Origin: a virus
Lineage: Duplodnaviria > Caudoviricetes
Direction: 5' to 3' (one strand)
IMG/VR virus record: IMGVR_UViG_3300049791_000009
Location: 1-50,475 of that record
DNA: 50,475 nt
Part shown: one piece after another, positions 5,157 to 50,475 of the stretch
Layout: the number at the start of each line of letters is the position of its first letter
How positions within the stretch are numbered: position 1 is the stretch's first letter
Notes under the pieces: generated by a model
The model's database searches: none
What the model was told of the DNA's origin: nothing
What the model saw: the letters and a program-made list of their open reading frames with translations, nothing else
Program-made: the position numbers and the translations under genes

Positions 5157-5654
5157 ATGATAAACAAAGAAGACCTGCTAGACAGTTGTGGTAGGCCGCT
5201 TACTCAGAGTTTGTTCCTAGAGTTGGGCTACTCTGAGTATTCAGTCTACACCCTTAAGGAGCATGACTACGCTTACAAGGGCAAGAACTACCCGTCTCTG
5301 AAGCGTCTCTACTTGAGAGAAGAGGATGTAACAGAATATGAGTTCGCCACCAAGCACCTGCTTGGCTGGCAGCACTGGAAGCGTCTCTGCGAGAACAAAC
5401 AGATCCGTAAGCACATTGATGATTGGCGGGAGGAGCTGGAGTTGAAGATCCGCTCCCAAGCCATTCGTGATATGCAGGGTCTGTGTGCCTCTGAGAATGG
5501 AAACTTCTCCGCTGCTAAGTTCCTTGCGGATCGTGGTTGGGAGAAGCGTGCTCCAGGACGCCCTAGCAAGATCGACAAAGAGAAAGAGGACCGTCTTGCT
5601 GACCGCCTCTCCGATGAATTCACTGCTGATATTATTCGGCTGAAGACTAAATAA
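5157..5654 (+). CDS. terS: Probable terminase small subunit
   Basis: 165 aa, helical, C-terminal GRPSK motif, coupled (TAATG) to the large terminase. Confidence 0.7.
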   Translation: MINKEDLLDSCGRPLTQSLFLELGYSEYSVYTLKEHDYAYKGKNYPSLKRLYLREEDVTEYEFATKHLLGWQHWKRLCENKQIRKHIDDWREELELKIRSQAIRDMQGLCASENGNFSAAKFLADRGWEKRAPGRPSKIDKEKEDRLADRLSDEFTADIIRLKTK

Positions 5655-48483: not shown

Positions 48484-48705
48484 CTATCCATTAGCTGTGA
48501 TGCCCTTACCAGTTGGCTTATACCACTCTTTCAAGTTAGAACGACCAACACGATACACCTTGTCGTTCATTTTCTTGAGGGCCTTACGTGCCTCTACAGT
48601 GTTCTCTGACTTGAGTGTCAGCACCCGCTGCTCTCGCATTACAAGCCTAGAGGCTTTGGGCCTTGAGTCAGTTAGGTTGATGCGTGGTTTCTTTAGGAAG
48701 CTCAT
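48484..48705 (-). CDS. Basic hypothetical protein
   Basis: Start at MSFLKKP immediately after the upstream stop; K/R-rich. Confidence 0.65.
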   Translation of the reverse strand: MSFLKKPRINLTDSRPKASRLVMREQRVLTLKSENTVEARKALKKMNDKVYRVGRSNLKEWYKPTGKGITANG

Positions 48706-48706
48706 G

Positions 48707-48880
48707 TTAGTAGCCCGCCCATTCACGCAGTGCTTGAAAATCAGTGAACGGCACTACTTTGTTTGTTACTACGTTGTTGGTGTCAACATTGATCACATAG
48801 TCAATCACATACACCGTGTTGCCGTTGCTGTGACTGTACCAATCATGAAGGGACGCCCATTTGATTTGTTGGTTGTTCAT
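48707..48880 (-). CDS. Early hypothetical protein, 57 aa
   Basis: MNNQQIKWASLHDWY...FTDFQALREWAGY; GGGAG RBS. Confidence 0.8.
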   Translation of the reverse strand: MNNQQIKWASLHDWYSHSNGNTVYVIDYVINVDTNNVVTNKVVPFTDFQALREWAGY

Positions 48881-48895
48881 GTTTGTTCTCCCGTT

Positions 48896-48976
48896 GGTTT
48901 ACTTAAGCTATCTGCTAGTCACGTTGGCGTAACACTACGCTACTATGAATTGAGCTACAGATAGCTTAAGTAAACC
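48896..48976. repeat. Perfect 19-bp inverted repeat (possible RNase III processing stem)
   Basis: GGTTTACTTAAGCTATCTG (48896-48914) pairs with CAGATAGCTTAAGTAAACC (48958-48976). Confidence 0.8.
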
Positions 48977-49316
48977 TTTCGGTTTACTCCCAGGACCAAC
49001 ACAACGTGTGTTGACGACTGAGGTCAGTAGCTCTCTAGATCACCAGCTTGTCAGGCTGTCTCACTAGTCGGCATTATGGGCAATGACAGGCCCCGTGCTT
49101 AACTACCCCAAGCAATCGATATGGGGCTACCTTCTTCGCTGGTAGCATAGCGGGCTGGTCTACAATCCATCAGCGCGGACTACTTAGCTTTCTCGGGCTA
49201 GACTACACACATTTAAGGTTCGCCTTGGCCGTACACTTTACTTTGTAGCGCCCCCTAGTGGGACATACAGTTGGCTAGAATCAGCTGAGCCCGTTTGCTC
49301 GTTGTTTGTTTCAGTG
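48969..49316 (-). ncRNA. Candidate structured non-coding RNA / early leader
   Basis: No ORF of 60 aa or more, downstream of a sigma70 promoter, many hairpins and one long-range helix. Confidence 0.5.
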
Positions 49317-49321
49317 AGGCT

Positions 49322-49351
49322 ATTAGAACATGGCTCGGTGTAGCTTGTCAA
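49322..49351 (-). promoter_or_regulatory. sigma70-type early promoter P3
   Basis: TTGACA-N18-TCTAAT with an extended -10 TG and an A-rich upstream tract. Confidence 0.65.
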
Positions 49352-49511
49352 ACTTATTTTCTACTGTGAACCTGGCTTGCTGGTATTGCATTGCGCTAGA
49401 GCCAGTGCTCCAGCTACGCCGGCAGGAAATCCCTCACTAGGCGAACCTAGATGAAGCCCTTGCTAGCTAAGCCCTCGATCCAAGATCTTGTTAGCTTTAG
49501 TAAGAGCCTTC

Positions 49512-49540
49512 AATATACCGAAGACGCTTAGTAAAGTCAA
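49512..49540 (-). promoter_or_regulatory. sigma70-type early promoter P2
   Basis: TTGACT-N17-TATATT. Confidence 0.8.
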
Positions 49541-49545
49541 CAACT

Positions 49546-49743
49546 TTAGTAACCAGCGGCTAGCTTTCCTTCTGGCCCTGCTACACAGATTGGTCCAGCG
49601 TCAAAGGATTGTGTGCCGATCACCGAGCATTCACACTCAGGATAGTCAGCTTGAGCACGCTCAAGCCAGGCTTGTACATCCGCGCCGGTCGGGATGTTAC
49701 GTACAGCTGAGCCCGAGCCCATCTTAATCTCGATAGCTGCCAT
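49546..49743 (-). CDS. First early protein, 65 aa
   Basis: AAGGAGGT RBS before MAAIEIKMG; start reassigned from 49956. Confidence 0.75.
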   Translation of the reverse strand: MAAIEIKMGSGSAVRNIPTGADVQAWLERAQADYPECECSVIGTQSFDAGPICVAGPEGKLAAGY

Positions 49744-49785
49744 GATGCACCTCCTTGCTTGTGTGTTTGTTGTTTCAGTAGGCGA

Positions 49786-49814
49786 ACTATAGGTCACCGC
49801 CCCCTGGTTAGCAA
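49786..49814 (-). promoter_or_regulatory. sigma70-type early promoter P1
   Basis: TTGCTA-N17-TATAGT. Confidence 0.7.
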
Positions 49815-50328: not shown

Positions 50329-50357
50329 GGGGCCGGGGCAGGGGGTTAGGGGAGGGG
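50329..50357 (+). other. G-quadruplex-forming tract
   Basis: GGGG-CC-GGGG-CA-GGGGG-TTA-GGGG-A-GGGG. Confidence 0.7.
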
Positions 50358-50475
50358 TGAGTATACTTGCATTGTCCCTCTAGAATTTCTACACAGAATG
50401 ACAAGGGATGGAAAGTTGGTCCGTTGAAGTTCCTCTCGTACATTTTAAGTTATATCTAAGGAAACGTAAGAATGA
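50349..50475. repeat. Exact duplicate of 1-127
   Basis: Direct comparison of the two ends. Confidence 0.9.

Follow-up and report, generated by a model that had tools for sequence, protein, structure and literature searches.

What is encoded in a gene-free stretch of DNA that lies directly behind an early promoter of a tailed phage? The question is raised by the virus record IMGVR_UViG_3300049791_000009 (Duplodnaviria; Caudoviricetes), a complete record of 50,475 bp that was analyzed over its whole length and is referred to here as the window. An earlier note, made from the sequence alone, had proposed that a large, multi-domain structured RNA heads the early transcript of this phage. Homologues, covariation, and a conserved upstream promoter back the proposal: the stretch encodes a conserved, strand-specific, covarying multi-helix RNA fold behind a host-type promoter, and the fold recurs in three phage groups and in a satellite element. 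That it represents a new family of large structured RNA, without a match in Rfam, is well supported. We put at about one in two the probability that the RNA works by itself as a folded molecule, independently of the open reading frame (ORF) that follows it, by a mechanism that we infer below.

The window carries its structural genes on the plus strand, from 1 to 25 kb; genes for replication and early functions occupy the minus strand, from 50 to 25 kb. The RNA element shares the minus strand with the early genes. It is preceded by a sigma-70-like promoter (49322 to 49351, minus strand) with a -35 hexamer TTGACA (49351 to 49346), an 18-nt spacer, and a -10 hexamer TCTAAT (49327 to 49322), which together give 11 of 12 matches; transcription would begin near position 49315. 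A strict promoter rule was satisfied within 120 nt upstream in 13 of the 21 loci described below, the -10 hexamer ending 6 to 19 nt before the first position of our covariance model. In one relative (L006), an insert separates a window-like promoter from the first helix, P1, as read from the alignment. No ORF the size of a T7-type RNA polymerase was found among the window ORFs, so the phage probably relies on the host polymerase.

From this promoter to the ATG at 48880, about 435 nt hold no sense ORF of at least 25 amino acids (aa) except for a 37-aa frame at 49238 to 49351, which overlaps the promoter. The earlier note had counted some 430 nt without a credible ORF between the promoter (which it called P3) and the next gene, and this count is confirmed. 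A conserved ORF was not found either, as there is no sense ORF of at least 25 aa within 48881 to 49237. The variable columns of a 15-row alignment (A5) fall on the three positions of a would-be codon 39, 37, and 40 times, that is, with no codon periodicity. ARAGORN predicted no tRNA or tmRNA gene in the window.

The closest named relative of the window is Pseudomonas phage GP100 (Zobellviridae; locus L001), with 86% amino acid identity in the primase/helicase; the next nearest are the Paundecimvirus phages (PA11, O4, TC6, and others; PA11 is locus L003 and O4 is locus L002), at about 70%. A sensitive blastn search found the ORF-free stretch conserved in three IMG/VR relatives and in GP100. Between the window and the closest of these relatives, L007, identity was 83.1% over 426 nt of the ORF-free stretch, compared with 75.2% over 944 nt of the neighboring coding DNA. 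An invariant 20-mer taken from the alignment identified nine metagenome loci and one genome locus. Global alignment of 13 sequences with MAFFT, followed by RNAalifold, misaligned the variable stems and so recovered only 22 pairs; it was replaced by a covariance model, R1, which covers the first 160 positions and was built from 13 seed sequences with a hand-checked structure of 39 pairs.

R1 hit 21 distinct loci, exactly once each, with E values from 6e-17 to 8e-46. These loci comprise eight GP100-like phages including the window (clade A), six chromosomal copies (clade B), and seven Paundecimvirus-type phages (clade C). Eight of the hits lay outside the seed: O4 (71.5 bits), PA11 (62.1 bits), PPAT, PP21, Ty, the IMG/VR phages L031 and L033, and the chromosomal copy L023. 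None of the seven Paundecimvirus-type phages had been used in building the model.

Base pairing in these loci is maintained by compensatory change. Across the 21 rows aligned to R1, 82.7% of 809 cells were paired, as opposed to 58.5 ± 1.2% in shuffles, none of which (0 of 500) reached the observed value; sliding the 3' partners lowered the share of paired cells to 34 to 46%. Thirty-four of the 39 pairs had changed on both sides, with 201 cells carrying such a change, and the covariation score was 0.618 versus 0.191. In the eight non-seed rows, 259 of 308 cells were paired, compared with 34 to 44% when slid. Over the full length of the element, 33 of the 98 predicted pairs showed compensatory change among the five closest relatives, and consensus folds computed clade by clade had the same helix order in all four groups, with differing sequences. 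G-U cells far outnumbered A-C cells (70 versus 18 in alignment A5), and thus the fold belongs to the transcribed strand, whose complement pairs poorly. Loops of RNA type were also seen, namely GAAA, GTAA, and a TTCG-capped hairpin.

These results leave little room for the view that the stretch has no function and is a chance ORF-free spacer, a decayed coding sequence, or a set of promoters and an RNase III hairpin only. Such a view could appeal to folding energies that are no better than those of shuffled sequence, and to the small ORFs that some GenBank records annotate over the element (PA11 ORF056 and a coding sequence in PPAT). It would have to account for covariation in 34 of 39 pairs, for conservation in three clades and the satellite, and for the lack of both codon periodicity and a shared ORF, and we consider it highly improbable.

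Scanned at gathering thresholds, the whole window had no match among the 4,227 models of Rfam 15, in agreement with the earlier note, which had found neither a tRNA nor a family that it recognized. At E ≤ 10, positions 48800 to 49600 gave only two chance-level 17-bit hits, on the terminal hairpin and the start codon. At E ≤ 1, the element in a satellite copy (L015), O4, and GP100 returned nothing but two sub-threshold matches to microRNA-precursor models, both on the terminal hairpin of GP100 (L001:1470-1558; 35.3 and 33.6 bits, with gathering thresholds of 70 and 100). In GenBank, 15 records match the O4 spacer, where the element is unannotated or lies under small "hypothetical" ORFs; one of them, Pseudomonas phage vB_PaeP_FBPa8, matches only upstream of the element. 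Full-text literature searches, whose coverage does not extend to supplements, found no description of the RNA. It is not mentioned in the PhiGP100 genome announcement (PMC6013638), and the terms searched for are absent from the TC6 paper (PMC6209634).

R1 had no hit at E ≤ 0.001 in five other genera of Zobellviridae (CW02, Klyazma, CVT22, ICP2, and PS32B-12), although the prefilter may miss distant forms; in CVT22, a partial 13.7-bit hit fell in apparently coding sequence. No hit was found in the 5.4 kb examined of two T7-like phages (L034 and L035) that share a neighboring gene of 185 aa. Among bacterial genomes, 2 of 67 in the host genus (that of G001) and 2 of 151 sampled in the family had a hit, and these were the same two.

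We then ask what the fold looks like. The element measures about 380 to 540 nt across the family and about 420 nt in the window, and it has at least 12 helices. All helix coordinates below refer to the minus strand of the window, and every listed pair was checked. A well-defined 5' domain (P1 to P6) is followed by a middle part (P7 to P10) and by a 3' part made of P11 and P12, a tetraloop hairpin (Pab), and a long terminal hairpin. While the stems vary freely, a number of loops and junctions are constant. The span given in the earlier note, 48969 to 49316, fell on a real element and was too short, as the element reaches 48896 through a 19-bp inverted repeat. The conservative helix map given here amounts to -77.7 kcal/mol, whereas the minimum-energy fold of the stretch it covers reaches -138.5 kcal/mol.

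P1 (49287 to 49300) is a 4-bp hairpin whose loop, AAACGG, is nearly invariant in the 21 rows; all of its cells are paired, and three of its four pairs changed on both sides. P2 (49274 to 49285), which is short in the window and 7 to 8 bp long in the satellites, has 72% of its cells paired and five of seven pairs changed on both sides. A conserved junction precedes P3 (49249 to 49265), a 6-bp hairpin with every cell paired and all six pairs changed on both sides. RNAalifold also paired the J2/3 junction over a long range with bases immediately preceding the Shine-Dalgarno sequence; this pairing was not adopted because it consists of 4 bp of invariant sequence without covariation. The earlier note had drawn an 11-bp helix (49265 to 49255 with 49067 to 49057) around much of the element. 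Ten of its 11 pairs can form in the window, but the helix is not conserved: its 5' arm coincides with the 5' arm and loop of P3, and, as read from the alignment, the two arms are not complementary in L006.

The P4-P5 arm (49180 to 49248) consists of an outer helix, P4, a conserved purine-rich internal loop, an inner helix, P5, and a 22-nt apical loop. In P4, 83.5% of cells are paired and seven of nine pairs changed on both sides; the corresponding values for P5 are 78.6% and seven of seven. The internal loop may resemble a loop-E type motif. Except at one variable position, the apical loop (49202 to 49223) is identical in 13 of the 14 rows from clade A and the satellites; the satellite copy L023 carries one further change. 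A shorter core of this loop is retained in 20 of the 21 rows, and in PA11 a different insert with a short TTCG-capped hairpin takes its place. By blastn, the 22-nt loop is the sole stretch common to the satellite and the window. Since the stems have diverged beyond the reach of blastn while this loop was kept, the loops appear to be under selection. A hairpin AAGG-CGAA-CCTT listed in the earlier note occurs only in the window and L007, inside an otherwise invariant loop, and is not a feature of the family.

P6 (49150 to 49176) has 2 and 4 bp separated by a 2-nt bulge and a conserved 13-nt loop; 62 to 73% of its cells are paired, and each of its six pairs shows changes on both sides. It takes another form in the GP100 subgroup. 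P7 (49126 to 49146; GCTACC/GGTAGC) shows changes on both sides in five of six pairs among five close relatives, and the satellites have other pairings in its place. P8 (49097 to 49113; GCTT/AAGC), a tentative hairpin with a conserved 9-nt loop, is predicted in close relatives and in satellites, where the stems are longer. The CCCCA/TGGGG hairpin of the earlier note competes with P8, which is better conserved, and could at most supply a pseudoknot partner; such a pseudoknot would tentatively join the P8 loop to 49125 to 49122. P9 (49069 to 49095) is likewise tentative, as RNAalifold backs only an inner 4-bp helix and the outer pairs were read by eye. P10 (49035 to 49067) has an outer CTAG/CTAG and an inner CAGC/GCTG helix, the latter with the loop CTGACAA; it is predicted in every clade with differing sequences, and it has a 2-bp extension with compensatory changes.

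In the 3' part, P11 (48989 to 49022; CTCAG/CTGGG) encloses the hairpin P12 (49013 to 48997), which varies in both sequence and length. According to the alignment, two outer pairs of P11 vary yet stay paired among the eight clade A loci, and RNAalifold recorded four different pair types at one P11 position in close relatives. Pab (48970 to 48987) is a 7-bp hairpin capped by GAAA, and other clades have other sequences and loops at the same place. P7, P12 (CAACACA/TGTGTTG), the inner part of P10, and the GAAA-capped stem had all been recognized in the earlier note; each is present and shows compensatory changes in relatives. Two loci depart from the general plan and would be useful natural mutants, namely PA11 (L003:2070-2500) and L016 (L016:187-651), in which about 27 nt have been inserted within the P8/P9 region and further inserts bring the length to 465 nt.

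Does the RNA serve the genes behind it? The terminal hairpin (48896 to 48976) has a perfect 19-bp stem (inverted repeat I1) and a 43-nt apical part. Four of its stem pairs changed on both sides among five relatives, and long terminal stems were present in all 13 phage sequences folded. A Shine-Dalgarno sequence GGGAG (48893 to 48889) and an ATG (48880 to 48878) of the first early ORF (57 aa; 48707 to 48880) follow. It is possible, if on the unlikely side, that the element is a purely cis-acting leader, a sensor or operator that sets how the early genes downstream are translated or transcribed. It could work through pairings that hide the Shine-Dalgarno sequence, through binding of a basic protein encoded downstream, or by shielding the leader from Rho or RNases. 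Positions agree with this, since the element ends 3 to 4 nt before the Shine-Dalgarno sequence in phages, and so do the predicted folds: for 9 of 13 phage sequences, the minimum-energy fold allows base pairing between the 3' end of the element and the Shine-Dalgarno region. In all five clade C sequences folded, the partner is a 9-mer rich in U that immediately precedes the long hairpin; in four of clade A (the window, L007, L006, and L012), CCG pairs with CGG. These pairings lie in invariant sequence and so have no covariation to support them. In the window group, two identical partners are open to a single 7-nt segment, and the first 7 nt of the terminal hairpin can form Pab instead.

The gene that a cis-acting leader would control is not constant. 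The first ORF behind the RNA differs among phages; the 57-aa ORF of the window has no PHROG or Pfam match and no blastn DNA similarity in L007 or L006. This ORF seems to have been inserted between the RNA and the next gene, which encodes a small, very basic protein and lies outside the RNA (48484 to 48705, minus strand; 73 aa; isoelectric point 10.9; phrog_5722). Relatives of the basic protein (73 to 90 aa; isoelectric points 10.6 to 11.1) are encoded behind the RNA in the window and in 13 further phage loci, as a protein-binding leader would predict, but none was found in the six satellite loci searched. They have two types of N terminus, which are swapped among clades. Identification of the basic protein as ribosomal protein S21 was dropped: it had no Pfam match at E ≤ 1, and the best PDB profile hit (E = 0.73) was to an unrelated protein. 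A conserved small upstream protein as a partner of the RNA was dropped as well, because the upstream ORFs differ among phages. The size of the element, 380 to 540 nt with at least 12 helices, far exceeds the needs of known translational operators.

The satellite copies also bear on this question. Clade B lies in a discrete 5,984-bp element of Stutzerimonas, flanked by perfect 53-bp repeats that copy the 3' part of tRNA-Val(GAC) (for example, L015:2721-8757; also L017, L021, L023, and others). It encodes a tyrosine integrase, an 88-aa protein resembling winged-helix replication initiators, two small proteins without assignment, a 115-aa protein, and either a 415-aa P-loop protein (phrog_2467) or a 246-aa alternative. 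No virion genes were found in it. The 115-aa protein matches the C-terminal half of phrog_8035, the family of the window ORF at 5157 to 5654 (35% identity over 75 residues, E = 5e-5). That ORF lies directly before the gene of the terminase large subunit (phrog_38) and is therefore presumed to encode the small subunit. By its gene content, the element is likely an undescribed satellite of Zobellviridae-type phages, with helpers from this phage group.

In seven of seven satellite loci, the RNA gene stands tail to tail with the terminase-small-subunit-like gene, and no co-directional ORF lies behind it. The RNA comes with a promoter-like site of its own (TTGATG, 17 nt, TATCAT), and a gene for a 114-aa protein lies just upstream of it in the five satellite loci where a relative was found. 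Since the first ORF is variable in phages and the satellite copy is free-standing, the RNA probably does not depend on a downstream ORF, and this arrangement speaks against a purely cis-acting leader. As such a leader, the satellite copy would drive or time antisense transcription across the convergent terminase-small-subunit-like gene; the lack of a U-tailed terminator-like site after the satellite RNA on its own strand agrees with that. The same arrangement weakens the proposal of the earlier note that the RNA is a put-like antiterminator, as a convergent gene, and not an operon, follows it.

The neighborhood of the terminase gene suggests another possibility, which we regard as improbable. 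The element could serve replication or packaging at the DNA level, or by being transcribed across, and the satellite could have pirated it from the helper phage. It might take the form of a primer origin like that of ColE1 RNA II, a terminase recognition site, or an RNA part of the packaging machine. The satellite and the phage share only the RNA element and the phrog_8035-related 115-aa protein, the two stand tail to tail in 7/7 loci, and in the window the element is close to the gene-poor region where the two genome arms diverge. A site acting as duplex DNA, however, would not be expected to show the excess of G-U over A-C cells and the RNA-type tetraloops reported above, which indicate folded RNA. 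The phrog_8035-type terminase small subunit occurs in 103 phage records, yet the RNA was found in none of the five other Zobellviridae genera (E ≤ 0.001). Only residues 40 to 112 of the satellite protein are related to the phage protein, and the N-terminal part has no match, so that the two need not recognize the same site. The window itself has 127 identical bases at its ends (1 to 127 and 50349 to 50475) and is classed under "direct terminal repeats." This overlap is probably the join of a circular assembly rather than a physical terminal repeat, and it does not give the true genome ends; among related records, GP100 has no end repeat and O4 has one of 74 bp.

A folded RNA acting in its own right would accommodate both the phage and the satellite copies. 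The host RNA polymerase probably transcribes the RNA from the sigma-70-like early promoter, so that it heads the early transcript. Under this reading, its invariant loops and junctions would bind a partner, which may be another RNA or a protein of the phage or the host. The long hairpin that adjoins the Shine-Dalgarno sequence in phages would probably be cut by an RNase III-like activity, as in the T7 and lambda N leaders. Such a cut would release the RNA from the early mRNA and uncover the ribosome-binding site. The free-standing copy of the satellite would either need the same activity or tap or titrate the partner of the helper phage. The earlier note also suggested an anti-defense decoy, which may be compatible with these data, and a ribozyme. 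More speculatively, the RNA could be a currency of helper-satellite conflict, with the satellite look-alike, which has the same 22-nt loop and adjoins the terminase-small-subunit-like gene, capturing a phage or host factor, possibly one linked to terminase or packaging, and so redirecting the helper. We hold this unlikely; if true, it would be the first case of satellite piracy shown to run through a large structured RNA, or else an example, beyond the phi29 group, of an RNA tied to packaging.

Contigs from three sequencing runs filed as RNA libraries, derived from relatives, lie on the element. Two fall inside it, X15 (182 nt; 49099 to 49274, 10 differences) and X22 (151 nt; 49144 to 49291, 2 differences), and a third, X23, whose RNA label is guessed, covers the 5' end and the promoter region (49228 to 49386). 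They give a weak hint of expression. Of the 24 sequencing runs listed, 23 hold a small share of the query words; no habitat was drawn from them, and parts that they leave uncovered are uninformative.

Several observations weigh against an independently acting folded RNA. The counted alignments were fitted to R1, whose structure came from the same sequences, and the slid control and the non-seed rows answer this objection in part. The folding energy of 48978 to 49305, which leaves out the terminal hairpin, is not significant when compared with shuffled sequence (z = +0.91 for the sense and -0.44 for the antisense strand). A 665-nt stretch (48881 to 49545) that includes the 19-bp repeat reached z = -3.2 and -4.5, much of which this repeat may account for. 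Helices P8 and P9 in the middle of the fold are uncertain. No second copy or complement of the 22-nt loop was found with up to three mismatches in the window or in two host genomes, the element itself aside, and thus the invariant loop has no antisense target there. PA11 is an isolated phage with a different insert, so the loop is not indispensable, and it differs in O4-type rows too. The pairing of the 3' end with the Shine-Dalgarno region fits a cis role. Finally, the hint of expression is weak because RNA libraries can hold DNA and the contigs show no transcript ends.

A putative sigma-70-like promoter (49512 to 49540, minus strand; TTGACT, 17 nt, TATATT; 10 of 12 consensus matches) directly follows a 65-aa gene (49546 to 49743), and a third promoter-like site lies at 49814 to 49786. 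The regions 49765 to 49814 and 49301 to 49351 hold two early promoters with near-identical first transcribed bases (repeats D5 and D6), and it looks as if a promoter-plus-leader module had been duplicated. In the early region of GP100, about 500 nt upstream of the RNA element, a type II hammerhead ribozyme is matched (L001:573-644, plus strand; 39.8 bits with a gathering threshold of 37, E = 3.7e-5); the Rfam scan gave no such match in the window. GP100 also carries, before the 185-aa gene, a tRNA with the anticodon TTA (L001:2034-2103; 50.9 bits with the Rfam tRNA model) that is annotated as a pseudo-tRNA and has been termed a possible suppressor (PMC6013638). In O4, the stretch just upstream of the element (L002:1147-1324) has 92% identity to the 45-kb phage vB_PaeP_FBPa8, which matches that stretch twice and the remaining O4 spacer not at all.

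Large structured RNA classes are rarely found, and most of those known have no assigned function. The present one occurs in cultured phages: PhiGP100 grows on Pseudomonas protegens CHA0, and O4, PA11, TC6, and others grow on P. aeruginosa. Its fixed position is telling, as it would be the first thing transcribed upon infection. The satellite copy, with its relative of the terminase small subunit, provides a natural second system and a testable hypothesis on the partner of the RNA. The family also flags an unannotated feature in at least 15 GenBank phage records, some of which place small spurious ORFs over it.

How does the element compare with known systems? The processive antiterminator RNAs put of HK022 and EAR act early in long operons transcribed by the host polymerase. 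In the phage loci examined, the element too is a structured RNA that a long co-directional operon follows, but in the satellite loci (7/7) no operon stands behind it; it is also much larger and has no Rfam match. The early leaders of T7 and of lambda N have one or more promoters for the host polymerase and an RNase III hairpin before the first ribosome-binding site, and in lambda N, RNase III cleavage relieves a translational block. The element shares with these leaders a length of hundreds of nucleotides and a long, near-perfect hairpin just upstream of the first ribosome-binding site. It differs in being a conserved, covarying multi-helix fold that exists without a downstream gene in satellites. 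The prohead (packaging) RNA of phi29 is a structured phage RNA made from an early promoter, as the element would be, and the satellite copy adjoins a packaging gene. The element, however, has no Rfam match, belongs to another phage family with a two-subunit terminase, and is of a different size; a packaging role for it is pure conjecture.

The C4 RNA of P1 and P7 and the CI RNA of P4 are leader-derived regulatory RNAs of phages and satellites, as mentioned in PMC7567579. The element resembles them in coming from the untranslated leader of an early operon and in having related copies in phages and a satellite. C4 and CI RNAs are processed by RNase P from the leader and are about 70 to 90 nt long. 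The element is about five times larger, has no Rfam match, and has no complement in the window to its 22-nt loop, the only loop for which one was sought. GOLLD and ROOL are large, ornate phage-borne RNAs of unknown function, according to PMC7567579 and PMC12286853. The element is like them in its several hundred nucleotides, many helices, conserved loops, and carriage by phages, and in being defined by covariation and not by folding energy. Both GOLLD and ROOL have Rfam models. The element is smaller than either, matches no covariance model of Rfam 15, and is also found in a satellite; it lies at the 5' end of an early operon behind a host-type promoter, whereas GOLLD and ROOL lie beside tRNA genes. 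Thus, while a member of none of these classes, the element stands beside the large ornate RNAs of phages and the leader-derived RNAs of phages and satellites.

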